Assembly: GCA_043728995.1 (NCBI GenBank)
Contig: JAYTLZ010000023.1
Location: 1 to 35,431 of the forward strand
DNA length: 35,431 nucleotides
Source of the DNA: Minisyncoccota bacterium
GTDB taxonomy: Bacteria > Patescibacteriota > Minisyncoccia > Phycocordibacterales > JAACPR01
Direction of reading: 5' to 3'
Shown: in pieces, positions 352-22,342 of the stretch
Position numbering within the stretch: position 1 is the first letter of the stretch
Layout: each line of letters begins with the position of its first letter
Made by a program: the position numbers and the translations under genes
The notes under the pieces: generated by a model
Database searches by the model: none
The model's input: the letters and a program-made list of their open reading frames with translations, nothing else
Told to the model about the DNA's origin: nothing

Positions 352-2073
352 ATGAGTTTCTTAAATTTTCTTGCGACTAAAAACATCATATCGCCGGAGC
401 AAGTTCCCTTGCTCAAGGAGCAGGCTAAGTCGGGCGAAAAAGCCCTTGATGCTATTTTGTATGAGACAGGAGTAACCAAAAACGACCTGTTGCAGACCAA
501 GGGTGAGTATTTTGGCGTACCATATCGCGACCTTGAGGGACTGAGCGTACCGTTCGAAGTTCTCAAGTACATACCTGAAGAGTCGGCAGTTCACTACAAG
601 TTCGTGCCGCTTGGAGTCGCTGACGGTTTTCTTGAGGTAGGAATCGTAAATCCTGAAAGTATCGAGGCTCGTGACGCTCTTAACTTCATCGCGACCAAGA
701 ACGACCTGCCGTTCAAGCTTTTTCTCATCTCCCAGGATGACTTCGACAAGGTGCTCGATATCTACAAGGGACTCTCAGGACAGGTGAACCAGGCGCTGAC
801 CGAGCTAGAATCCGAACTCTCCGAGGAGGAAAAGGAAATTAAGAAGCAACTTGAGGCTGTTTCGCACGGAAACGGTGACGATACTCATTTGGTCGAGGAT
901 GCTCCTGTGACAAAGATTGTGGCAACAATTCTCCGCTACGCCGTTGAGTACGGTGCATCTGACGTCCATGTCGAGCCACTTTCTGACAAAGTACGCGTGC
1001 GATTTCGAGTTGACGGAGTGCTTGCTACAAGTATTGTTCTGCCTCCCAAAGTAGAGAGTGCCGTCGTTGCTCGAATCAAGATCCTTGCCCAAATGAAGCT
1101 CGATGAGAAACGAAAGCCCCAGGACGGACGATTCCAGGCGCGTATCGACGGTCGCAAGATTGACTTCCGAGTGTCGACATTTCCTGTGTATTTTGGTGAA
1201 AAGGTCGTAATGCGAATCCTTGATCAGTATAAGGGTGTGAAGAAGATGGCAGAGGTTGGACTTTCGGACAGGTATCTCAAGATGCTCAAAGAGGCGATTG
1301 CAGAGCCATACGGAATGATCCTTATCTCGGGACCGACAGGGTCCGGAAAGTCCACGACACTGTACTCGATTCTAGGTGAGCTTGATACCAATTCTAAGAA
1401 CGTGCTCTCATTGGAGGATCCTGTCGAATATACCGTTGATGGAGTGAGTCAGTCGCAGGTGCGTGCGGACATTGGATATACCTTTGCAACCGGACTGCGA
1501 ACTACTCTTCGACAAGATCCTGATATTATCATGGTGGGAGAGATCCGAGATGGTGAGACGGCCAAGCTTGCGATACAAGCCGCGCTTACGGGTCACCTTG
1601 TGCTTTCTACCATTCACACCAATACAGCTTGTGGAATCGTGCCCCGACTGATAGACATGGGTGTCGATCCCTACCTTATTCCTCCTACGTTGATACTTGG
1701 AATCGGTCAGCGACTTGTCCGGAAGCTGTGTCCATCAAGTGGAGAGGCTGTCCCTGTGGAAGGAAGCGTGAAGACTATGATCGACAACCAGTTTGCAGAC
1801 CTGCCCGAGGAGTTTCGTCATGAGATTCCTCAAGCCGCTGAGATTATGAAGATCAAAGCGACTCCCGAGTGTCCGAACGGAACAAAGGGTCGGGAAGCTG
1901 TGTTCGAGATGTTCAAGATGTCCAAGGAGATCGAGGCGGTCATTCTCAAGAATCCAGTGGAGTCAGAGATCTATAAGGTCGCACGATCTCAGGGGTTGAT
2001 TACTATGAAAGAGGATGCGATCCGAAAGATGATGCTCAAGACTATCCCATTCGAAGAGATTAACGAACTATAA
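352..2073 (+). CDS. pilB: Type IV pilus assembly ATPase PilB/GspE family
   Basis: ASDVHVEP, RFRVDG, Walker A GPTGSGKSTT, LEDPVE, LRQDPDIIMVGEIRD, TGHLVLSTIHTN; MshEN-like N-terminus. Confidence 0.95.
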   Translation: MSFLNFLATKNIISPEQVPLLKEQAKSGEKALDAILYETGVTKNDLLQTKGEYFGVPYRDLEGLSVPFEVLKYIPEESAVHYKFVPLGVADGFLEVGIVNPESIEARDALNFIATKNDLPFKLFLISQDDFDKVLDIYKGLSGQVNQALTELESELSEEEKEIKKQLEAVSHGNGDDTHLVEDAPVTKIVATILRYAVEYGASDVHVEPLSDKVRVRFRVDGVLATSIVLPPKVESAVVARIKILAQMKLDEKRKPQDGRFQARIDGRKIDFRVSTFPVYFGEKVVMRILDQYKGVKKMAEVGLSDRYLKMLKEAIAEPYGMILISGPTGSGKSTTLYSILGELDTNSKNVLSLEDPVEYTVDGVSQSQVRADIGYTFATGLRTTLRQDPDIIMVGEIRDGETAKLAIQAALTGHLVLSTIHTNTACGIVPRLIDMGVDPYLIPPTLILGIGQRLVRKLCPSSGEAVPVEGSVKTMIDNQFADLPEEFRHEIPQAAEIMKIKATPECPNGTKGREAVFEMFKMSKEIEAVILKNPVESEIYKVARSQGLITMKEDAIRKMMLKTIPFEEINEL

Positions 2074-2147
2074 AAGCGCTGGGATTATTCCCCAACCGTG
2101 CTTTATTTACTAATAATAAAAAGTACTCTTGTGGTATACTTTTTCAT

Positions 2148-2525
2148 ATGACAGACACACCAAAAAAAGTAGTTTTTATTGATGATGATAAGTTCCTTCT
2201 CGATATGTATGTGACCAAGTTCAAGACTGCCGGATTCGAGGTGACCGCGTTCTCTTCCGCACAAGAAGCGCTCGACAGGATCAAGGAGGGAAACAAATAC
2301 GACGCTGTCGTGTTCGACATCATCATGCCGAATATGGACGGATGGGAGTTTGCCGCACAGTTTCGTGGTGCCAATCTTCTTCCCAAGGCAAAGTTCGTCG
2401 TCCTGAGCAACCAGAACCAGGGAGACGATCTCAAGAAGGCCAAGGAGTTCAAGGCAGACCTGTTTATCGTGAAGGCGCTCAAGACACCTTCAGAAGTAGT
2501 ACAAGAAATTAACAAAATTTTATAA
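2148..2525 (+). CDS. Single-domain response regulator (receiver)
   Basis: FIDDD acidic pocket, phosphoacceptor FDIIMPNMDG, LSN, conserved K in IVKA. Confidence 0.92.
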   Translation: MTDTPKKVVFIDDDKFLLDMYVTKFKTAGFEVTAFSSAQEALDRIKEGNKYDAVVFDIIMPNMDGWEFAAQFRGANLLPKAKFVVLSNQNQGDDLKKAKEFKADLFIVKALKTPSEVVQEINKIL

Positions 2526-2528
2526 CAC

Positions 2529-3590
2529 ATGGAATACAAGCACTTTTTAGACCAGTTACTTGACGCGGTTGTCGCGCAAACAGCATCAGACCTTCACTTT
2601 TCAGAAGGAAGATATCCGAGCCTTCGCGTAAACGGAGACCTTATTCCGCTGATGGACACCAAGATTTTGGAAAAGGGTGACACGGCTGGTCTACTAAAGC
2701 ATCTTGTATCCAAGGAGCTGATCGAACGGTTCGAGCAGGAGCTTGAGCTCGACTTTGCATTCGAACACACGCAGGGGAATCGCTTCCGAGGAAGCGCATT
2801 TGTACAACAGGGCAAGGTTGGTGTAGTGCTTCGACTTATTTCCAACAGAATTCCTACGCTTGAGGAGTTGAACCTGCCGGAGGTGCTCTATGACTTTGCA
2901 CGCAAGAAGCAGGGATTCTTTATTTTGGTAGGTCCGGTTGGACAGGGTAAGACAACAACGCTTGCATCCATGATCGAACGCATCAACCAGGAGCGCGCCG
3001 ATCACATCATCACGATCGAGCGACCGATCGAGTACATCTATACCCAGAAGAAGTCGATCATCGACCAGCGTGAGGTGCCTCTTGATACGAAGGACTTTTA
3101 CACAGGACTGATCGGAACACTGCGTCAGGACGTCGATACGATTTTGGTAGGAGAGATGCGTGACAAGGATACGATCATGGCTGCCGTGACTGCTGCCGAG
3201 ACGGGACACCTCGTGTTCTCGACGCTTCACACTAACAACGCTTCTCAGACCATCGACCGAATCATCGACTCGTTTCCAGCGGAGCAGCAGGACCAGATCA
3301 GAACGCAACTCTCGACTTCCCTGCTTGGAATATTCTCACAGCGCCTGATCCCCCGCATTTCCGGCGGAATGATTCCTGCATACGAGCTTTTAATTAACAA
3401 CAACGCAGTTGCCAACCTGATCCGCGAGAAGCGAACGCATGAGATCGACACAGTCATCGAGACCGGGCGCGATGTCGGCATGATTGACATGAACCGAACA
3501 CTCGCCGACCTGGTCCGCCGAGGGGAAATTACTGCAGAGGACGCGTTTGCATACTCAGTCAAGCCGCAGGTTCTAGAAAAACTAATGTAA
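2529..3590 (+). CDS. pilT: Type IV pilus retraction ATPase PilT
   Basis: ASDLHF, Walker A GPVGQGKTTT, LVGEMRD, AAETGHLVFSTLHT, AVANLIRE (AIRNLIRE-like). Confidence 0.93.
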   Translation: MEYKHFLDQLLDAVVAQTASDLHFSEGRYPSLRVNGDLIPLMDTKILEKGDTAGLLKHLVSKELIERFEQELELDFAFEHTQGNRFRGSAFVQQGKVGVVLRLISNRIPTLEELNLPEVLYDFARKKQGFFILVGPVGQGKTTTLASMIERINQERADHIITIERPIEYIYTQKKSIIDQREVPLDTKDFYTGLIGTLRQDVDTILVGEMRDKDTIMAAVTAAETGHLVFSTLHTNNASQTIDRIIDSFPAEQQDQIRTQLSTSLLGIFSQRLIPRISGGMIPAYELLINNNAVANLIREKRTHEIDTVIETGRDVGMIDMNRTLADLVRRGEITAEDAFAYSVKPQVLEKLM

Positions 3591-3593
3591 CAT

Positions 3594-4805
3594 ATGCCAC
3601 TTTTCATATACAAAGCAATAGACAAGGAGGGACAGCCGAAATCGGGAACGGTTGAGGCGGTGAACGTAGACGTGGCAATCGGATCGCTGCAGCGACGAGG
3701 TTTCATCATCTCTGCAATCAATGAGGCCAACGAGCAGAAGTCGCTTCTCGGTAAGAACTTGACCTTTTTCGAGCGCATCAGTAACAAGGAGATCGTGATC
3801 CTGTCGCGCCAGCTGGCGACACTCTTCAGCGCGCAGGTTTCTGCCCTGCGAATTTTCCGTCTACTTGGATCGGAAACCGAAAACCCGAAGCTATCGCGTA
3901 AGCTCAACGATATTGCGGAGGCACTTCAGGGAGGAAACTCGATCTCGGCATCAATGGAACGGCACAAGGACGTCTTCAACTCGTTCTACGTATCCATGGT
4001 GAAGGCCGGTGAGGAGACGGGTAAGCTGGACGAGACGTTCGTCTTCCTTGCAGATTATCTGGATCGCTCATATGAGGTGACTCAGAAGGCCAAGAATGCG
4101 CTGATCTATCCTGCCTTCATCGTCTTTACCTTCGTAACGGTTATGGTGCTCATGCTTACCATGGTTATCCCGAAGATTTCCTCGATCCTGGTCGAGTCTG
4201 GGCAGGAGATTCCGACGTATACCAAGGTCGTGATTGCCGTATCGGAGCTTCTGACCAACTACGGAGTGTTCGTGCTAATCGGTCTGGCTATCGGAGCGTT
4301 CTTCATGTTCAAGTTCCTTAGGACGGAGACTGGAAAGTCAGCGTTCGATGGGGTTAAGCTCGAGGTGCCGTATCTGGGTAACCTGTATTCCAAACTCTAT
4401 TTGTCGAGAATCGCCGACAACCTCAATACTATGCTCGCTTCCGGTATCCCGATGGTCAAGGCACTTGAGCTGACACGTGACGTGGTGGACAACCGCGTGT
4501 TCCTGGCAGCTATCAATCAGAGCTTGGAGGACGTGAAGGGTGGATCGCCAGTATCTGCAGCCTTTGCCAAGCATGAGCAGTTTCCAAACATTCTTATTCA
4601 GATGATGAAGGTGGGAGAGGAAACAGGTAATCTGGGCGAGATTCTTTCTACTCTAGCAAAGTTCTATCAGCGTGAGGTGACGAACGCTGTGGACACGCTT
4701 GTGGACATGATTGAGCCGATCATGATCATCCTGCTTGCCGTCGGTGTGGGTACGCTTTTGGCATCAGTTCTTATTCCGATTTACAACATTAGTTCGACGT
4801 TCTAA
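3594..4805 (+). CDS. pilC: Type IV pilus platform protein PilC/GspF family
   Basis: RQLATL, two T2SSF repeats with GEETGKL/GEETGNL, ALIYP, IEP...IPIY C-terminus. Confidence 0.95.
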   Translation: MPLFIYKAIDKEGQPKSGTVEAVNVDVAIGSLQRRGFIISAINEANEQKSLLGKNLTFFERISNKEIVILSRQLATLFSAQVSALRIFRLLGSETENPKLSRKLNDIAEALQGGNSISASMERHKDVFNSFYVSMVKAGEETGKLDETFVFLADYLDRSYEVTQKAKNALIYPAFIVFTFVTVMVLMLTMVIPKISSILVESGQEIPTYTKVVIAVSELLTNYGVFVLIGLAIGAFFMFKFLRTETGKSAFDGVKLEVPYLGNLYSKLYLSRIADNLNTMLASGIPMVKALELTRDVVDNRVFLAAINQSLEDVKGGSPVSAAFAKHEQFPNILIQMMKVGEETGNLGEILSTLAKFYQREVTNAVDTLVDMIEPIMIILLAVGVGTLLASVLIPIYNISSTF

Positions 4806-4879: not shown

Positions 4880-7800
4880 GTGATGTATCTGCACCTGCCT
4901 TTTTGTAAATGTAAAAAAGTTCAGTCCCTCATTGGGACAATCGCGCTTGCGATTGTGCTTTGCGTATCGATACCTGCATCTGCCTCTGCGACGACATTTT
5001 TGGGAATGGAAGTTTCGGGTAAAAGTGCCCAGGCGAACATCTCAGGATTTTTTAATACGCTTTCGATCAGGGTGTTCTGTGGACTGACGGGACTGTTTGC
5101 TAATACGTGTGAGGAGCAAGGAATCGGACAGAGTGGGACCACTTCACCACAGAATGTTGTTACGGTACAAAATACTTCAGTAGTCGCCGTGCCAGCGCAG
5201 CCAGTAGTGACACCTGCAGTTCAGGTAACAGGGGCTGACGTGCGACAAACAGTTGTGGAACGAATCATTGAGCGCGTCGTGAGTCCTGTCGGGATTGCGG
5301 GCGTATCTCAGGAATATGTTGACGGGCGGCTCGCTGCGCTCGCCGCTGAACTGCGGGACGAGATGACCGACAGGACTATCACAGTCAGGACATCGTCCGG
5401 ATCATCAGGTGACAACTTCTCACGACAGGTCGACAGTATCTATGATGACATGAGCGAAAATATCAATGAGGCAATCGAGGGGCTGCAGACCGAGGATCAG
5501 GTCCTTACTCTGATCGCGGCTAACAGCACGGCCCTGCCGGTGGGTACCGCTGGCTACATACTGCAAGCGACAGGAACGACAACGCAGTGGGTCGCGACGA
5601 GCACGCTCGGGTTTGCGTCGGCGGGTGGGGACTGGACCGGAACCTTTGATGGGCAAGCAAGCTCGTTCTACCTCGCTCGTGCTAACCACAGCGGAACGCA
5701 GACCGCATCTACCATCTCTGACTTCTCGTCAACTGCGAGGGGACTCTTCTCATCTTCGGTAACAGGACTGACATACACGTCAGGAACGGGCACGTTTTCC
5801 CTTACCTCCGGTTACGAGATCCCAACAACCGCATCTACCACCGAGTGGACGAGCAAGGTCTCGAGCCAGTGGACGACGAGCGGCTCGAATATTTCATACA
5901 CAGCTGGTAATGTCGGAATCGGAACCACCACACCTGGTGCAAAACTGCATGCTTTGGCGACCACCGAGCAGTTGCGGCTCGGGTATAGCGCGTCCAACTA
6001 TCTATCAATGACGGTAGGTTCTACGGGATTAGTCACACTCAATGCTGTGGGAACGGGATCGGCTTTCACGTTCTCTGGCGACGTTTCCGCCCCTAACATA
6101 TCTATCGGCAGTTTCAATATAAACGGAACAACTGGTTTATTCAATGGAACTGCACAAACCGCAAACAGCGCATATTTAGGAGCAACTTCTGGTGCAGTTT
6201 TGGCGGTCAATAACGGCTCAAACTACGTGTATGATGACAATGCCAATGCACTGTCTGCCGTCTATGCCAACAATGCGGGCAGTGCGAGCTACGCGACTTA
6301 CGGCGCTAGCTCTAGCCTCACTCTTGCGGTCAACAACGGGGGATACGTGTACGATGATCTTGGCACTGCCTTGTCTGCCGCTTATGCAGACAACGCAGGT
6401 GTCGCGACCAATGCCTCGTCTGCGAACACTGCTAACGCAAGCTGGGGACAATTCTTCGTTGGAGGAGGATTTTTTCTCGACGCTGACAACAACCCGGTCA
6501 CTGGGATAAGCCTCGGTTCCGCATCTGTCCCCTCCGTTTCCTTCACGAGTGACACGAATACAGGAATCTGGTCACCCGCGGCCGATACCCTCGCGTTCTC
6601 AACCGCGGGCAGCGAAAGATTGCGTATCACTAGTGGAGGGAATGTCGGAATTGGAACGACAACTCCTGCAGCAAAACTTGCCATCACTGGAACCGCTGGA
6701 ACCGGCGATATCTTTGCAATCGCGTCTTCTACAAACGCTCGTTTACTTACTGTGACAAGCGCGGGGAATATTGGAATCGGAACATCCAATCCTGAAGGAA
6801 TTCTTTCTATAAATTCTGGTAACGCAGTTAACGATTGGATCCAAATGGGAAATGAATCAGCAACAGCCTCTAAATATATTGGATTAGCCACAGGAGCTTC
6901 TTTTGGCGCTAATCTCGGATTTTCTGGTATAGAGTTTGGCCCTCCCGCAGGAACCGGTGAAGGCTATCTTGCTTTTCATACTCACGATGCAGGTGTCAGT
7001 TCTGGTGAGAAGATGAGAATAGACAAGAGTGGAAACGTTGGAATTGGGACCACGACACCGGTGGCCAAGCTTGCGATCACGGGAACCGCTGGAACTGGCG
7101 ACATCTTCGCCATCGCCTCGTCGACCAACGCGCGGCTCCTGACGGTGTCAAGCCTAGGAAATGTAGGAATTGGTACCGATGCTCCAGCTCATAAATTACA
7201 CCTGAGCGATAGTGTCAATAACTTTCAGATGAGAATCGGAGGAACCTCCACCTTTAACTATGACATGGGAAGAAGCAACTTTGACGGCTACTTTAATTTT
7301 TATGGAAACAGGACGGCAGCAGTAGGGTATGTTTTTGGAGGAGTTGACGGTGAGAGAATGAGGTTGACATTTGCTGGAGATCTTGGAATTGGAACAACAA
7401 CACCCGGTGCTCGACTTAATGTTGTTTCCAGATCCGTTGCATCAACGACTGCAATGTTTGCAGGATTTAGCTCAGGTCAGACGGCTGATATATTGCAGCT
7501 TGCAAAGAACCCCGGAGCAACTCCAGGTCTTATATTCAGTGCCGGTGGAAGTCTTGGAATCGGGACAACGACGCCGACAGCACAGCTGCATACGACGGGA
7601 ACTGTTCGATTCTCAAATTTTGCAGCAGGTACGCTTATGACTGACGCGGATGGAAACGTGACCGCATCATCCGATGAGCGACTCAAGAACATCGAGGGCA
7701 ACTTTGACAGGGGACTCGAGGATCTTCTCAAGATCCAGACCATTTCATACAAGTGGAAGACCGAAACTGGATACGATACTGACTCAAGCTATGCTGGATT

Positions 7801-8416
7801 CTCGGCACAAAACGTTCAACTTGCGATCCCTGAAGCAATTTCAACGAACACAAAGGGCATGCTTTCCCTATCTGATCGTCCGATTCTCGCAACGGTGGTA
7901 AATGCCATCCGGGACCTGTCAGTAAAGTTTGAATCAATGGCCGCATGGTTTACTGGTGGCAGGTTCAACGTGCAGAGCGACATCTGTGTGGACGACGTCT
8001 GCGTGACCAAAGAAGAGTTCAAGGACATCCTCAGGGGCGGAGGGGGTAATCGGCTGTCGCCAACACTCGCACCGATGGATGATCCGGATCCTGTTCCAGA
8101 GGGTGACTCGTCAGGTGGTACTGAAGGGGGTAGTGAACCGGTGATTGACGGGTCGACAGGCAATGACGGAGCTGAGCCTCCGATCGTACCAGTTCCGGAT
8201 ATCGCTGTACCGGATGAAGGTTCCGAAACGCCTTCTCCGCCCGAGACGGGCGGTGACGCGCCGAATCTGGGATCTTCAGAGACATCCGATACTGAAGACT
8301 CTTCCGACGAGGGCGCTCCGGCAGATTCGGGCGACTCATCTTCGGGCGGTAACTCATCTTCGAGCAGCGACTCCAGCGGAAGTTCTGACAGTGGTTCTTC
8401 GGACGGTGGTGAGTAA
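4880..8416 (+). CDS. Large secreted/anchored fibre-like protein with GNVGIGT repeats and a C-terminal peptidase S74-type intramolecular chaperone domain
   Basis: N-terminal hydrophobic signal; about 7 G(N/D/S)(V/I/L)GIGT motifs; SSDERLKNI...YAGFSAQNVQLAIPEAI chaperone motif; acidic Pro/Ser/Gly-rich tail. Confidence 0.8.
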   Translation: MMYLHLPFCKCKKVQSLIGTIALAIVLCVSIPASASATTFLGMEVSGKSAQANISGFFNTLSIRVFCGLTGLFANTCEEQGIGQSGTTSPQNVVTVQNTSVVAVPAQPVVTPAVQVTGADVRQTVVERIIERVVSPVGIAGVSQEYVDGRLAALAAELRDEMTDRTITVRTSSGSSGDNFSRQVDSIYDDMSENINEAIEGLQTEDQVLTLIAANSTALPVGTAGYILQATGTTTQWVATSTLGFASAGGDWTGTFDGQASSFYLARANHSGTQTASTISDFSSTARGLFSSSVTGLTYTSGTGTFSLTSGYEIPTTASTTEWTSKVSSQWTTSGSNISYTAGNVGIGTTTPGAKLHALATTEQLRLGYSASNYLSMTVGSTGLVTLNAVGTGSAFTFSGDVSAPNISIGSFNINGTTGLFNGTAQTANSAYLGATSGAVLAVNNGSNYVYDDNANALSAVYANNAGSASYATYGASSSLTLAVNNGGYVYDDLGTALSAAYADNAGVATNASSANTANASWGQFFVGGGFFLDADNNPVTGISLGSASVPSVSFTSDTNTGIWSPAADTLAFSTAGSERLRITSGGNVGIGTTTPAAKLAITGTAGTGDIFAIASSTNARLLTVTSAGNIGIGTSNPEGILSINSGNAVNDWIQMGNESATASKYIGLATGASFGANLGFSGIEFGPPAGTGEGYLAFHTHDAGVSSGEKMRIDKSGNVGIGTTTPVAKLAITGTAGTGDIFAIASSTNARLLTVSSLGNVGIGTDAPAHKLHLSDSVNNFQMRIGGTSTFNYDMGRSNFDGYFNFYGNRTAAVGYVFGGVDGERMRLTFAGDLGIGTTTPGARLNVVSRSVASTTAMFAGFSSGQTADILQLAKNPGATPGLIFSAGGSLGIGTTTPTAQLHTTGTVRFSNFAAGTLMTDADGNVTASSDERLKNIEGNFDRGLEDLLKIQTISYKWKTETGYDTDSSYAGFSAQNVQLAIPEAISTNTKGMLSLSDRPILATVVNAIRDLSVKFESMAAWFTGGRFNVQSDICVDDVCVTKEEFKDILRGGGGNRLSPTLAPMDDPDPVPEGDSSGGTEGGSEPVIDGSTGNDGAEPPIVPVPDIAVPDEGSETPSPPETGGDAPNLGSSETSDTEDSSDEGAPADSGDSSSGGNSSSSSDSSGSSDSGSSDGGE
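6160..6425 (+). repeat. Two tandem ~40-aa repeats (LAVNNG..YVYDD...ALSA.YA.NAG)
   Basis: TTGGCGGTCAATAACGGC / CTTGCGGTCAACAACGGG and TACGTGTATGATGAC / TACGTGTACGATGAT duplications. Confidence 0.8.
6638..7177 (+). repeat. Dispersed 49-codon duplication (6638-6784 and 7031-7177)
   Basis: GNVGIGTTTP(A/V)AKLAITGTAGTGDIFAIASSTNARLLTV(T/S)S(A/L)GN(I/V)GIGT occurs twice. Confidence 0.9.
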
Positions 8417-8467: not shown

Positions 8468-9910
8468 ATGTCAGCAATTACGAGCCCGAGCGGCAAAGTG
8501 TATTACCCAGTGATCGGGCTTGAGATTCATGCCGAACTCAAGACGGAGTCCAAGATGTTTTCGTCATCCAAGAATGATCCGGACGAGGTTGGTCCGAACG
8601 TGAACATCAATCCGATTGATCTCGGTCATCCCGGAACGCTTCCTACTATTAATAAGAAAGCCATTGAGCACATGATCAAGGTCGGTCTTGCCGTGGACGG
8701 AACGATTGCGAACTTTACCGAGTTCGACCGCAAGAACTATTTTTATCCAGACATTCCAAAGGGATATCAGATCAGCCAGTTCAAGTATCCGATCGTATCG
8801 GGTGGACATCTTGCGGGCGTCGACATTACACGCATTCACTTGGAGGAGGATACCGGACTTTCCAAGCATGATCGCGGCGACTTCTCACTCGTAGACTTTA
8901 ATCGTGCAGGACTTCCGCTGATGGAGCTGGTGACAGAACCTGTGATTTCTTCTGCAGAGCAGGCTGTTCGATTTGCAAAGGAATTGCAGCTTGTGTTGCG
9001 GTATCTTGGAATTGCGGAAGCGAATATGGAAAAGGGAGAGATGCGCGTCGAGGCGAATATTTCCGTCTCTGATGTTGAGGGATTTTTCGGAACAAAGGTT
9101 GAGGTCAAGAACCTGAACTCGTTCAAGTCGGTAGAAAAGGCAATCGAGTTCGAGCTCGAGCGCATGATCATGCTCAACGAGGCAGGCAAGAAGGACGAGA
9201 TCGTCCAGGAGACGCGCGGATGGGACGAGAACAATCAGAAAACGTTCTCACAGAGAAAGAAGGAATCGTCCGATGACTACCGATACTTCCCAGAGCCTGA
9301 TTTGCCAAAGCTATATCTGCACGAGTTATTTAATTTGGATGAAATAAAGGGTGGATTGCCCGAGATCCCAGCCGGAATGCGAACGCGATTTGCCGAGCAG
9401 TATGGACTGAGTACGAAGGAGATTGAGATATATGTGCAGAACAAGCACCTTGCGGAGCTGTTCGAGGCGGTCGCACTGCAATCGCAAAGTCCCGCCGCAT
9501 TGCAGAAGGCGTCCAACCTGATTCTCTCTGACGTTGTCTACTTTTTGGATACTGAGCCTGGCGCAATCCTGCCGAGAGCAGAGACGTTCGCATCGATCGT
9601 GCGACTATTCGCAGACGACCAGATCACGTCACGAGGCGTAAAGGATTTGCTGCGACTCTCGATGACCAGCATGACCGAGATCGAACCAGAATCATTTGCC
9701 AAGGAACATGGCATGATCCAGCAGAGCAACGCGGACGACCTCCGACCGCTGGTTGAAAAGATTATTGCGGACAATCCGGGTCCAGTTGCCGAGTACCGAG
9801 CCGGCAAGGAGTCGGTACTGCAGTTCTTCCTCGGGCAGATCATGAAGGAGACGAAGGGGAGCGCAAATCCTAAGCTGACGACCCAGCTCCTACAGGAATT
9901 GCTGAAATAG
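8468..9910 (+). CDS. gatB: Asp-tRNA(Asn)/Glu-tRNA(Gln) amidotransferase subunit B
   Basis: IGLEIHAEL, FDRKNYFYPDIPKGYQISQ, IHLEED, DFNRAG, KVEVKNLNS, DYRYFPEPDL, C-terminal YqeY-like tail. Confidence 0.98.
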   Translation: MSAITSPSGKVYYPVIGLEIHAELKTESKMFSSSKNDPDEVGPNVNINPIDLGHPGTLPTINKKAIEHMIKVGLAVDGTIANFTEFDRKNYFYPDIPKGYQISQFKYPIVSGGHLAGVDITRIHLEEDTGLSKHDRGDFSLVDFNRAGLPLMELVTEPVISSAEQAVRFAKELQLVLRYLGIAEANMEKGEMRVEANISVSDVEGFFGTKVEVKNLNSFKSVEKAIEFELERMIMLNEAGKKDEIVQETRGWDENNQKTFSQRKKESSDDYRYFPEPDLPKLYLHELFNLDEIKGGLPEIPAGMRTRFAEQYGLSTKEIEIYVQNKHLAELFEAVALQSQSPAALQKASNLILSDVVYFLDTEPGAILPRAETFASIVRLFADDQITSRGVKDLLRLSMTSMTEIEPESFAKEHGMIQQSNADDLRPLVEKIIADNPGPVAEYRAGKESVLQFFLGQIMKETKGSANPKLTTQLLQELLK

Positions 9911-18455: not shown

Positions 18456-19856
18456 ATGGAACGAACATATATCAAAGACCTGAAGGAACATGTCGGAAGC
18501 GAGGTAACCATCAAGGGGTGGATCGACGTCAGGCGTGACCAGGGCAAGCTCATCTTTCTGGACTTTCGGGACATGACCGGCAAGGTGCAGGGAGTTATTC
18601 TGCCTGGAGCAGACCAGGCACATGAGGTCGGATCACAGGTGCGACCCGAGTGGGTTGTCGAGGTGAAGGGAAAGGTAAACCCGCGACCGGAGCGAAACGT
18701 GCAGGCGGACAAAATGAACGGAGACATCGAGCTCGAGATTCTTTCCGTTGCAGTACTCAATACGGCAGAGACTCCTCCTTTTAATATAGACGAGGACGGA
18801 AAGGACATCGGAGAGGAGACACGACTCAAGTACCGATACGTCGACCTCAGGCGAGACCGCATGCAGAAGAACATTCGCATGAGGCACAAGGCGATGCAGT
18901 TCGTACGGGAATTCTTCACCAAGGAAATGTTCACCGAGATCGAGACTCCGTACATGACCAAGTCCACACCAGAAGGATCACGAGACTACGTCGTGCCTTC
19001 GCGAATTTACCAGGGGAAGTTCTACGCGCTTCCGCAGTCTCCGCAGCAGTACAAGCAGCTTCTGATGTCCGCAGGATTTGAGAAGTACTTCCAGATCGCG
19101 CGATGCTTCCGAGACGAGGACACGCGAGGGGACAGGCAGCCGGAGTTCACACAGGTCGACCTCGAGATGAGTTTCGTAACGCAGGAGGACGTGATGGCCG
19201 TGAACGAGAAGATGCTGATCGAGATGGTGCAGACTCTGTATCCGGAGAAAAGGATCCAGCAGATTCCTTTCCCGCGAATCTCATACGCGGAAGCGATGGA
19301 GAAGTACGGAAACGACAAGCCGGATATTCGAGAGGACAAGGAGGATGCGAATCTCTTGGCGTTCTGCTGGGTGATCGACTTTCCATTCTTTGAGAAGACT
19401 GATACCGGAGCATGGACGTTTACGCATAATCCGTTCTCCGCACCAAAGCCGGAGTTCATGGAGGACCTGCGTGCAGAAAGTAATATCGAGGGAATCGTAG
19501 CAGCGCAGTACGACATCGCGCTGAACGGATACGAGATCGGAGGAGGAGGAATCCGAAACCACAATCCTGAGGATCTCAAGAAGGTGTTTAAGATCATGGG
19601 ATACTCTGACGAGCGCATCGAGTCCAACTTCGGACACATGCTGACCGCGCTTGCGTCAGGTACGCCGCCACATGGAGGAATCGCGTTCGGGTTCGACCGA
19701 CTGATGATGCTTCTGCAGAACGAGCCGAACATCCGCGAGACGATTGCCTTCGCCAAGACAGGTGAGGGTAGGGATCCGATGATGGAATCTCCGTCCGAGA
19801 TTGCTGATACGCAGCTTCAGGAGCTCGGGATTATCATCAAGAAGCCGCTAAAATAG
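18456..19856 (+). CDS. aspS: Aspartate--tRNA ligase, bacterial type, lacking the GAD insertion domain
   Basis: OB fold RRDQGKLIFLDFRD, RLKYRYVDLRR, LPQSPQQYKQ, CFRDED..RQPEFTQVD, PPHGGIAFGFDR. Confidence 0.96.
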   Translation: MERTYIKDLKEHVGSEVTIKGWIDVRRDQGKLIFLDFRDMTGKVQGVILPGADQAHEVGSQVRPEWVVEVKGKVNPRPERNVQADKMNGDIELEILSVAVLNTAETPPFNIDEDGKDIGEETRLKYRYVDLRRDRMQKNIRMRHKAMQFVREFFTKEMFTEIETPYMTKSTPEGSRDYVVPSRIYQGKFYALPQSPQQYKQLLMSAGFEKYFQIARCFRDEDTRGDRQPEFTQVDLEMSFVTQEDVMAVNEKMLIEMVQTLYPEKRIQQIPFPRISYAEAMEKYGNDKPDIREDKEDANLLAFCWVIDFPFFEKTDTGAWTFTHNPFSAPKPEFMEDLRAESNIEGIVAAQYDIALNGYEIGGGGIRNHNPEDLKKVFKIMGYSDERIESNFGHMLTALASGTPPHGGIAFGFDRLMMLLQNEPNIRETIAFAKTGEGRDPMMESPSEIADTQLQELGIIIKKPLK

Positions 19857-20836: not shown

Positions 20837-20854
20837 CACCCAGAAGGAGATTTG

Positions 20855-20894
20855 GCCCCTGCTGCGCACACCACGTAGCAGGGGCTTTCTTTTT
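20855..20894 (+). terminator. Terminator
   Basis: GCCCCTGCTGCG-CACACCA-CGTAGCAGGGGC-TTTCTTTTT. Confidence 0.8.
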
Positions 20895-20955: not shown

Positions 20956-21228
20956 ATGAAACGCTCCAATCCATCACAGAGGGGTCTCCAGGACCTTCCA
21001 CTCTTTGCGCAATCAGCTACACGGACTCTGCCGAGGCCCATGGTCGTCGAGACTCCAGTTCAGGAAACCGAACAGGAATGTCCGCATGCGGACCTCGGCT
21101 ATCCGTGTCGGTGCAAGAAGCATCGCGCGCAGGAGTTGGACGCCCTCGGGCCTCCTTATCGGCACGTACGGAAACCAGTACTTTCCAGGCATGATATCCA
21201 CGATATCCTGTCTAGCGACAAGTACTGA
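20956..21228 (+). CDS. Small hypothetical protein with C-x-H...C-x-C-x-x-H cluster
   Basis: CPHADLGYPCRCKKH; TGGTATGAT upstream; hairpin 21239-21270 downstream. Confidence 0.5.
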   Translation: MKRSNPSQRGLQDLPLFAQSATRTLPRPMVVETPVQETEQECPHADLGYPCRCKKHRAQELDALGPPYRHVRKPVLSRHDIHDILSSDKY

Positions 21229-21324
21229 TTCCACCATCACACTCCCATTGAGCTTCGGCTCTGGGGGTGTTTGATTTTGGGTCGAACTTTGTGACCAGCT
21301 TAGGTTAGTATATAATACTGTCAC

Positions 21325-21996
21325 GTGCCAATCTATAAAAAGATTAACAAGGACTTCTTTAAGAAGTGGACCAAGGACATGTCCTATGTTCTGGGATTTC
21401 TATATGCGGATGGCAACATTATCAAAAACAAGAGAGGTGCACATTTTATATCACTGTACTCTGCCGACTTTGATTTGTTAGAAAAGATGCGTGACGCAAT
21501 GGGATCAGATCATAAGATCTCAAACAGAAAAGGTCTGGATTCTAATAATCATTCGATTCAGATAGGCAGTAAGGAAATGTATGAAGATCTGATAGTTCTG
21601 GAATTGAGGCAAAACAAAACTCTTAGAATGCAACTTCCTCTTATTCCTGATAAATTCTTCAGCTCCTTTCTCAGAGGATATTTTGATGGTGATGGGAACG
21701 TATGGGTGGGTCAGATACACAAGGAAAGAAAGACAAGTCATCTTGCAATACGGACGGTCTTTACCTCATGTTCCAAGGAATTTCTAATTTCTCTGAATGA
21801 AAATATTTATAAACTATCGGGACAAAAGGGATCTGTTACAAAAGGAAAGGGTAATTATTACAGGCTTACATTCAGCATAAAAGGCTCTTTCCAATTGTAT
21901 GAAATGATGTATAATGGCGTCCAGTCATCTTTGTTTTTGAACAGAAAAAAGACGAAGTTTGATGAGTATTTTACAGATAGACACATGCAGGTGTAG
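21325..21996 (+). CDS. Free-standing two-motif LAGLIDADG homing endonuclease; stop codon inside tRNA-Asp
   Basis: Motif 1 YVLGFLYADGN, motif 2 FLRGYFDGDGN; AT-rich; GTG start 8 nt after TATAAT (21311-21316). Confidence 0.9.
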   Translation: MPIYKKINKDFFKKWTKDMSYVLGFLYADGNIIKNKRGAHFISLYSADFDLLEKMRDAMGSDHKISNRKGLDSNNHSIQIGSKEMYEDLIVLELRQNKTLRMQLPLIPDKFFSSFLRGYFDGDGNVWVGQIHKERKTSHLAIRTVFTSCSKEFLISLNENIYKLSGQKGSVTKGKGNYYRLTFSIKGSFQLYEMMYNGVQSSLFLNRKKTKFDEYFTDRHMQV

Positions 21997-22295
21997 CTCA
22001 GCTGGTTAGAGCGTCCGCCTGTCGAGTGGCAGCTTCCGGTACGAAAGTCCGGTCGAACAATAAGGTGAATTGCTGGAAACCCTCCTCAAAAATGAAAGGG
22101 CAATCAGCAGCCAAGCTTCGGAGCGATCCGTTGAAGGTTCAGAGACTATCCCTTCGGGGAGTAGCCTGCGAAAGCAGTCGAAGCGCCTTACGCCTAAAGT
22201 CAGAAATGACCACGGTGATGATATAGTCCATACCATTATGTAAATTTTGGATTAATGCACGCGGAAGGTCGTGGGTTCGAGTCCCATCACTTGCG
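21987..22295 (+). tRNA. tRNA-Asp(GTC), intron-containing (exon 1 21987-22022, exon 2 22258-22295)
   Basis: GCAGGTG/CACTTGC acceptor, G73; spliced anticodon arm TCCGC-CTGT|CAC-GCGGA; GTGGG-TTCGAGT-CCCAT. Confidence 0.93.
22023..22257 (+). ncRNA. Group I self-splicing intron, 235 nt, ORF-less, IA-like (P7.1/P7.2), inserted at tRNA position 35/36
   Basis: Exon ends in U and intron ends in G; P1 CTGT|C:GGCAG with U.G wobble; P3 TAAGGTG/CGCCTTA; P AATTGCTGGAAA; Q AATCAGCAG; R TTCAGAGACTAT; S GATATAGTCC. Confidence 0.93.
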
Positions 22296-22299
22296 CAAC

Positions 22300-22342
22300 A
22301 AAAGGAAAGACCCAATAGCGAAAGCGTTGGGTCTTTCCTTTT
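22300..22342 (+). terminator. Terminator after tRNA-Asp
   Basis: AAAAGGAAAGACCCAA...TTGGGTCTTTCCTTTT with GC-GAAA-GC cap. Confidence 0.85.

Follow-up and report, generated by a model that had tools for sequence, protein, structure and literature searches.

We analysed a stretch of 35,431 nucleotides (nt) from a Minisyncoccota bacterium (GTDB lineage Bacteria; Patescibacteriota; Minisyncoccia; Phycocordibacterales; JAACPR01). It comprises positions 1 to 35,431 of the forward strand of contig JAYTLZ010000023.1 (assembly GCA_043728995.1) and is called the window in the following. The study deals with a gene for a LAGLIDADG endonuclease that lies directly in front of a tRNA-Asp gene and runs into its first bases, and with the group I intron by which this tRNA gene is split. 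The locus consists of the following features:

21289..21316, + strand: promoter-like site (TTGTGA, 16 nt, TATAAT) with 10/12 consensus matches
21325..21996, + strand: gene for a free-standing, single-chain LAGLIDADG endonuclease, 223 amino acids (aa), GTG start
21385..21414, + strand: LAGLIDADG motif 1, residues 21-30 (..YVLGFLYADG), with the catalytic D29 at 21409-21411
21667..21696, + strand: LAGLIDADG motif 2, residues 115-124 (FLRGYFDGDG), with D121 and D123 (21691-21693)
21888..21915, + strand: second promoter-like site, within the endonuclease gene towards its 3' end, about 72 nt before position +1 of the tRNA; 10/12 matches
21987..22022, + strand: 5' exon of tRNA-Asp(GUC), positions 1-35, ending ..CCUGU
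22023..22257, + strand: group I intron of 235 nt without an open reading frame, between the anticodon bases U35 and C36; its last base is the G at 22257
22258..22296, + strand: 3' exon of tRNA-Asp, from CACG.. through acceptor and discriminator; CCA is not encoded
22304..22338, + strand: inverted repeat after the tRNA, possibly the terminator of the unit, as read from the sequence

Judged by its sequence and its structural model, the open reading frame (ORF) at 21325-21996 is an intact two-motif single-chain LAGLIDADG endonuclease that is expected to cleave DNA. It matches the Pfam family LAGLIDADG_3 (PF14528) with 33.1 bits at a cut-off of 22.5, and its GTG start is backed by the N-terminus MPIYKK, which is conserved across 29 homologues, some of them likewise beginning with V. 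The columns G24, F25, A28, D29 and G30 of motif 1 are invariant in the homologue alignment. An initial annotation, made from the letters of the window, had described both catalytic positions as acidic, and this was confirmed: D29, D121 and D123 are invariant in 30/30 aligned sequences and, together with Q79, in 97/97 sequences, 55 of which stem from genes beside intron-less tRNAs. The AlphaFold2 model (pLDDT 91, pTM 0.88) contains the unit alpha-beta-beta-alpha-beta-beta-alpha twice. A Foldseek search against the PDB delivered 145 matches at E <= 0.001, led by I-Tsp061I (E 4e-11) and followed by I-AniI and I-HjeMI; the top 50 matches listed comprise LAGLIDADG enzymes, engineered variants, a maturase and intein endonuclease domains. 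I-Tsp061I (PDB 2dch) is also the closest solved chain by sequence (E 1.1e-5). It shares the two-domain single-chain fold and the size of about 200 aa (TM 0.65/0.71), but it is only 20% identical and comes from an archaeal rRNA intron. The best non-self match of the window's endonuclease among about 5.8 billion proteins is 72% identical. Relatives at E <= 1e-3 number 1538 among 1690 candidates, and those with a named source come almost all from Parcubacteria/Paceibacterota.

The insertion in the tRNA gene is, on sequence criteria, a group I intron whose removal restores tRNA-Asp and for which self-splicing is predicted. It scores 69.5 bits with the Rfam model RF00028 (67 bits in a second search), the gathering score being 50. 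When run in intron mode, ARAGORN finds the cloverleaf of tRNA-Asp(gtc) at 21987-22296 with an intron of 235 nt; in default mode, the same program misses the gene. The boundaries were set by group I rules, i.e. a U preceding the 5' splice site and a G closing the intron. The U-G pair at the 5' splice site is formed by exon CUGU with intron GCAG near 22028-22031, and the related introns listed with both ends defined are all preceded by T and all end in G. The joined exons are base-for-base equal to the uninterrupted tRNA-Asp of two genomes of the same genus (G003 and G005). Because folding of the single intron sequence gave no signal (z -1.19), the intron call rests on the match to the family model. 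The only reading frames in the intron are mechanical ones of 57-76 aa, and 235 nt are too short for an endonuclease. That the intron is ORF-less and begins 26 nt behind the endonuclease gene, as stated in the initial annotation, is borne out by the ORF end at 21996 and by the intron called at 22023-22257 with RF00028 and ARAGORN. The adjacency described there also stands, but the two genes are in fact overlapping: the stop codon TAG (21994-21996) is U8-A9-G10 of tRNA-Asp, which means that the tRNA supplies the stop of the endonuclease gene. An assignment of the ORF to the intron was rejected, as the entire ORF precedes the 5' splice site and, in most relatives, fronts an uninterrupted tRNA.

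The arrangement recurs throughout the family. Three sets of loci were compared, namely genomes (the best 80 of 523 relatives), metagenome contigs and the Asp-type loci of an even sample of the bacterial class:

Genome set, 80 loci: tRNA-Asp directly downstream in 78, the other 2 being contig ends; intron in 38, no intron in 40
Metagenome set, 80 loci: tRNA-Asp directly downstream in 76, no call in 4; intron in 31, no intron in 44, ambiguous in 1
Even class sample, 22 Asp-type loci: tRNA-Asp directly downstream in 22; intron in 5, no intron in 17

In 73/78 loci of the genome set, the distance between the end of the endonuclease match and the start of tRNA-Asp is -9 to +34 nt, and in 78/78 it is at most 302 nt. 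As a control, distant viral relatives were inspected: the phage and viral collections contain only such relatives (<=39% identity), and they stand next to a tRNA in 1/80 cases. With the same layout in 78/78 and 76/80 loci against 1/80 in the viral control, the adjacency can hardly be due to chance. The endonuclease gene takes up the whole leader of the tRNA gene. It starts just after the promoter-like -10 box or after an upstream tRNA, and it ends at U8-A9-G10 or at a TAG in the D-loop; in 68/79 loci the stop codon falls within the tRNA, the ORFs entering the tRNA in all three frames and ending at a tRNA TAG. In 35/64 loci there is a tRNA-Met on the same strand, the end of which is 2-141 nt away from the start codon of the endonuclease gene that follows. 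The insertion point of the intron is identical in all 38 intron-bearing loci of the genome set. The endonuclease family is locked to the tRNA and not to the intron.

Further observations were made on the tRNA genes of these loci. In one lineage (L013, L015, L019, L028, L032, L041, L058, L069, L070, L075 and L084) the unusual T-arm GGGGTCAGCACCC replaces GGTTCGAnnCC of tRNA-Asp; ARAGORN, which misses this lineage in both modes and often fails there when the intron is present, was replaced by reading these loci by eye. Partial copies of the first 10-13 bases of tRNA-Asp occur upstream of the real gene in L097 (G001), L086 (G004) and L022, with a shared spacer of 60-90 nt before the gene in G001 and G004 and as a tandem array in L022. 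Breakpoints recur near tRNA position 10-13, possibly a hot spot of break repair. ARAGORN in intron mode also proposes a candidate tRNA-His(gtg) in L029 (+1148 from the endonuclease end) and a candidate tRNA-Thr(ggt) in L038 (+222), each with an insertion of 190 nt. According to these ARAGORN calls, other tRNAs in the two genomes may carry introns as well.

Within the genus of the window's genome (G000), the locus could be followed in eight species, each time behind the same class II synthetase gene and in three different states:

Endonuclease and intron: G000, G004, G007
Intron only: G001
Neither endonuclease nor intron: G002, G003, G005, G006

The exons are identical in all of them save two acceptor bases in G006. 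In the empty alleles a promoter-like -10 box is followed by a leader of 25-45 nt, and in the occupied alleles this leader is replaced by the ORF, whose 5' junction in the genus lies directly after the -10 region. The promoter-like site at 21289..21316, with its -10 box ending 8 nt before the endonuclease start codon, is the counterpart of the tRNA-Asp promoter region of endonuclease-less relatives, and the empty alleles of the genus show the same upstream block with a TATAGT box and then ACTG. The scan for such sites found 4 against 2.6 expected in shuffled sequences and is weak evidence alone. The inverted repeat at 22304..22338 was not called by the terminator scan, its T tail being too short. 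In G039, a genome of the same order, a remnant of 36 aa of the endonuclease abuts an intron-bearing tRNA-Asp; further broken copies are L034, L053, L064, G319 and G200. The window's locus is present in four DNA runs of one study, and no RNA run is listed among those with it. Contigs from the DNA runs break at the tRNA exons. None of them carries an endonuclease-less or intron-less form of the same strain, although contigs cannot show absence. Some short contigs of greater depth have the intron-less junction or a different intron, and these most likely stem from other members of the community.

The census of the class covered 401 evenly drawn genomes at a match threshold of E <= 1e-45. Endonuclease matches were detected in 30/401 genomes at 33 loci, of which 22 (including the window) are of the Asp type, 8 belong to a sister clade, 2 follow a tRNA-Cys/tRNA-Leu pair and 1 lies at a contig end; the Asp type is present in 22/401 genomes. 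The sister clade is 29-35% identical and occurs in 8 genomes directly 5' of an intron-less tRNA-Cys(GCA) that is followed by tRNA-Leu(TAA) (L152, L153 and L155-L160), and a broken copy sits at the same position in L088 (G017). In relatives, weaker and more distant LAGLIDADG paralogues were seen just upstream of tRNA-Leu(TAG), tRNA-Leu(GAG) and tRNA-Tyr(GTA) (L089, L090, L092 and L096), which suggests a wider radiation of endonucleases in tRNA leaders. For the intron, a pattern was used that spans its 3' end and the adjoining Asp 3' exon. It matches 11/401 genomes, 8 of them credibly: 5 lie beside the endonuclease, two (G265 and G273) are backed by ARAGORN, and one (G311) lies at the end of a contig. 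The pattern also occurs at four places that are not tRNAs, one of them a second match in G273. The pattern of the uninterrupted tRNA-Asp matches 299/401 genomes, including 13/17 of the intron-less endonuclease-bearing ones. The intron was thus counted in 5/22 endonuclease-bearing and 3/289 typed endonuclease-less genomes (odds ratio 28, Fisher p 5e-5, uncorrected for relatedness), and the five genomes with both elements belong to five different families.

The initial annotation had proposed collaborative homing, a strategy in which a free-standing endonuclease cuts intron-less alleles while the neighbouring intron protects the donor, as described for some phages in the consulted part of PMC3984707. 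This proposal stood only in part. The intron is clearly enriched beside the endonuclease, and the window's clade (the window, G007/L005, L007, L008 and G004) carries it in 5/5 members as an own intron type. Against this stand 100/173 endonuclease-bearing loci without intron, a number pooled from the three sets, which may overlap. Homologues beside intron-less tRNA-Asp, which had been named beforehand as an argument against the proposal, are frequent in every set (40/78, 44/76 and 17/22). Furthermore, for six exon types (28 nt, positions 8-35) the endonuclease-bearing loci include both intron-bearing and intron-less genes. On an endonuclease tree of 76 tips, from which five rows were left out (two contig ends and three broken ORFs), the intron state changes 22 times compared with a mean of 25.6 in shuffled data, 51/500 shuffles being as low, and three well-supported sister pairs differ in intron state. 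The distances of endonucleases and introns correlate weakly (Mantel r 0.27, 34/2000 shuffles as high), and this correlation is confounded by host relatedness; the nearest introns to the window's (L007, L008 and L005) do belong to its nearest endonucleases. A joint spread of gene and intron, which was also claimed, applies insofar as the two are linked and occur together in the window's clade, but not with regard to the many state changes on the tree. Since many relatives sit beside intron-less genes with their catalytic residues intact, the intron is no general requirement for the protection of the donor, and there is no family-wide co-divergence. On these sequence comparisons, a family-wide need of endonuclease-bearing alleles for the intron is not supported, while a local protective role in the window's clade, with 5/5 members, is allowed. 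Linkage alone is no proof of protection, because insertions 26-45 bp apart would be co-converted anyway.

From these comparisons, the explanation that we favour, at somewhat better than even confidence, is a selfish free-standing endonuclease residing in the leader of tRNA-Asp, with the intron as a linked but dispensable passenger. A free-standing selfish element is indicated by the location between host genes, the fixed position, the patchy occurrence among relatives, the broken copies and the empty alleles with identical exons. The ORF would be transcribed as part of the pre-tRNA, and cleavage by RNase P at +1 would part it from its stop codon and so limit its expression. As to the target, we can only surmise that cleavage falls in or close to the 5' part of the tRNA gene at tRNA-Asp loci that lack the endonuclease; the enzyme's own copy would be protected since the insertion replaces the leader half of the target site. 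The intron would be a second, separate selfish element and likely a hitch-hiker, co-converted along with the endonuclease gene as the latter enters an empty allele. Their relation would then be a one-sided collaboration rather than mutual protection, and in the window's clade both appear to have travelled together. The intron-only G001 and the remnant-bearing G039 may correspond to later stages of the usual decay cycle of endonucleases. More tentatively, and with less than even confidence, the findings can be extended to a radiation of tRNA-specialised LAGLIDADG endonucleases in Patescibacteria, each clade in the leader of its own tRNA (Asp, Cys, probably Leu and Tyr), expressed from the pre-tRNA with the stop at U8-A9-G10 and with RNase P and translation competing. 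The intron would be a dependent passenger here as well, and maybe an immunity device in some clades including that of the window.

Several observations weigh against the favoured reading and have to be considered together with its rivals. Loci with the canonical D-arm (TGGTTAGAGC) and an endonuclease have the intron present versus absent in 27/3, 3/0 and 18/8 cases, in total 48 with and 11 without, whereas at least 37 endonuclease-less census genomes with the same D-arm are intron-less, according to a count by eye among the 150 rows listed. All endonuclease-bearing species of the genus (3/3) carry the intron as well. The D-arm pattern is what protection by the intron predicts, and it thereby speaks for true collaborative homing at least in the window's clade: the enzyme would recognise the region from the D-arm to the anticodon loop and cut near 35/36, the intron would split this site and protect the donor, and both would be copied together. 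The concept itself is established in two phages, as far as the consulted part of PMC3984707 reports. The clade-specific intron type in all five members and the odds ratio point in the same direction, as does the genus, in which exon-identical empty alleles exist and none of eight species has the endonuclease without the intron. Several of the 11 exceptions differ at positions 26-32, e.g. by T32 (L054, L208 and L209) or C26, a difference that may be incidental. Odd D-arms as escape mutations were rejected as a general rule, the same types being common in endonuclease-less genomes; the variants with an extra base, GGTTAGTAGC and GGTTAGCAGC, were not seen in endonuclease-less genomes among the 150 rows listed. 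We nevertheless regard collaborative homing as the less likely reading, though a serious rival for the window's clade, in view of the many catalytically intact family members beside intron-less genes, the exon types found in both intron states and the sister clades at tRNA-Cys, tRNA-Leu and tRNA-Tyr without any intron; the short distance of the two insertions links them even without a protective role.

Other points concern the history of the gene and its regulation. The three locus sets overlap, since some contigs recur in more than one collection, and related loci are not independent of each other. The leaders of the empty alleles are not conserved, and the site at 21888..21915 could, from its sequence, drive the tRNA independently and uncouple it from the ORF. 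The low GC content of the endonuclease gene (0.34-0.39 versus about 0.51 in the window's flanks) was considered as proof of recent horizontal arrival and rejected as such, because AT-richness compared with the flanks is family-wide (mean 0.346 versus 0.421 at 78 loci). Likewise, recent transfer within the genus is unsupported: the endonucleases are 63-66% identical there, below GatB (75-82%) and the class II synthetase (82-84%), so ancestral presence with repeated loss is compatible with the divergence. Such vertical descent would fit a domesticated protein without homing, acting as maturase for the intron, as regulator of the tRNA operon or as nuclease against competing DNA. In agreement with this, position and motifs are very strongly conserved throughout the bacterial class, and some LAGLIDADG proteins are maturases, with the bI3 maturase and the bifunctional I-AniI among the fold matches. 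We consider domestication improbable, as the gene is present in only 22/401 genomes of the class and 3/8 species of the genus, several copies are broken, and at most loci there is no intron to mature. Maturases and regulators tend to lose the catalytic acidic residues of LAGLIDADG, which are invariant here. The least probable explanation in our opinion is a passive relic, i.e. an old insertion that is inherited vertically and decays slowly, with intron and endonuclease as unrelated neighbours. The lack of near-identical copies across genomes, with 72% identity at best, and a divergence within the genus that exceeds that of housekeeping genes would agree with such a relic, but the catalytic and motif residues kept in 97/97 sequences and the full length of most ORFs indicate purifying selection, and if the two were unrelated neighbours, the intron would not be expected to be so strongly enriched at endonuclease-bearing loci.

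Among known systems, collaborative homing is exemplified in phages by F-CphI/psbA and Aeh1 mobE. As in the concept defined in PMC3984707 (section 12), the window has an intact endonuclease outside of and adjacent to an ORF-less intron. It differs in that the enzyme is of the LAGLIDADG type and not HNH or Endo VII-like, the host DNA is a cellular chromosome, the target gene encodes a tRNA, an intron partner is missing in most of the family, and the endonuclease gene has neither own expression signals nor an own stop codon. By analogy, the nearest functional counterpart of the window's endonuclease is probably SegB of phage T4, a free-standing endonuclease in a tRNA cluster. In the consulted part of PMC2330249, its largely degenerate site is given as 27 bp with a core of only 11 conserved bases from a tRNA motif, and it drives the inheritance of itself and of neighbouring tRNA genes. 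Both genes are free-standing and embedded among tRNA genes. SegB is a phage-borne GIY-YIG enzyme without a bond to a single tRNA species, whereas the window's family is LAGLIDADG, chromosomal, strictly 5' of tRNA-Asp and in translational overlap with it.

Bacterial tRNA group I introns are known from tRNA-Leu, fMet, Ile and Arg, and I-SspI is an endonuclease encoded within a tRNA-fMet intron. The window resembles these cases in its small intron in the anticodon loop and in the link of an endonuclease to an intron of the anticodon region; the host tRNA is Asp here, and the endonuclease is of a different family than I-SspI and located outside the intron. For bacteria of the candidate phyla radiation (CPR), the consulted part of PMC11270868 describes LAGLIDADG endonucleases that are encoded inside insertions or introns of rRNA genes. 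The bacterial radiation, the enzyme superfamily and target-specific homing into conserved RNA genes are common to both cases, but the window's gene lies outside the intron, in a tRNA leader, and belongs to another sequence family (LAGLIDADG_3). The word 'tRNA' has 0 occurrences in the main text of that paper. The literature search yielded no account of LAGLIDADG genes in the leaders of bacterial tRNAs and none of a bacterial tRNA-Asp group I intron. At this point we want to mention that such 23S rRNA insertions also occur in the window's genome (G000:C16, L003 1460-1770 and 2462-3076, minus strand), where a second ORF-less group I intron, scoring 62.7 bits, interrupts domain V of the 23S rRNA gene; a different LAGLIDADG ORF of 204 aa is located further upstream in this 23S region.

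The remaining part of the window contains several recognisable genes. The pilus machinery mentioned in the initial annotation was found again at 352-4805, where ATPases of type IV pilus/type II secretion systems (PilB-like and PilT-like) and a PilC-like platform protein are encoded; a role of this pilus in DNA uptake is speculation. An ORF of 1178 aa at 4880-8416 ends in a C-terminal Peptidase_S74 (endosialidase chaperone) domain, which is usually found in phage tail fibres, and it is followed by gatB at 8468-9910. The class II aminoacyl-tRNA synthetase (Asp/Lys/Asn type) at 18456-19856 precedes the tRNA-Asp gene by about 2 kb, and this synteny is conserved in the genus. A terminator-like hairpin of the upstream gene lies at 20854-20886. 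Between this hairpin and the endonuclease gene there are about 480 nt, which apart from an ORF of 90 aa at 20956-21228 are without assignment; G006 (L101) has a similar stretch.

If our interpretation is true, the leaders of cellular tRNA genes represent a new niche for homing endonucleases, in which the stop codon is supplied by the tRNA. The locus states (empty, endonuclease only, endonuclease and intron, intron only) form a natural series for studying the cooperation of endonucleases and introns, and a single genus shows three of them, all but endonuclease only, on identical exons. The family also provides a large set of compact natural meganucleases of about 220 aa, which presumably recognise sequences of tRNA genes. 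For genome annotation it is relevant that the split tRNA-Asp is missed by default tRNA finders, so that such genomes look as if they were without an essential tRNA. If the intron became an immunity device, these loci would represent a stage between a free-standing endonuclease and a mobile intron, caught in cellular genomes.

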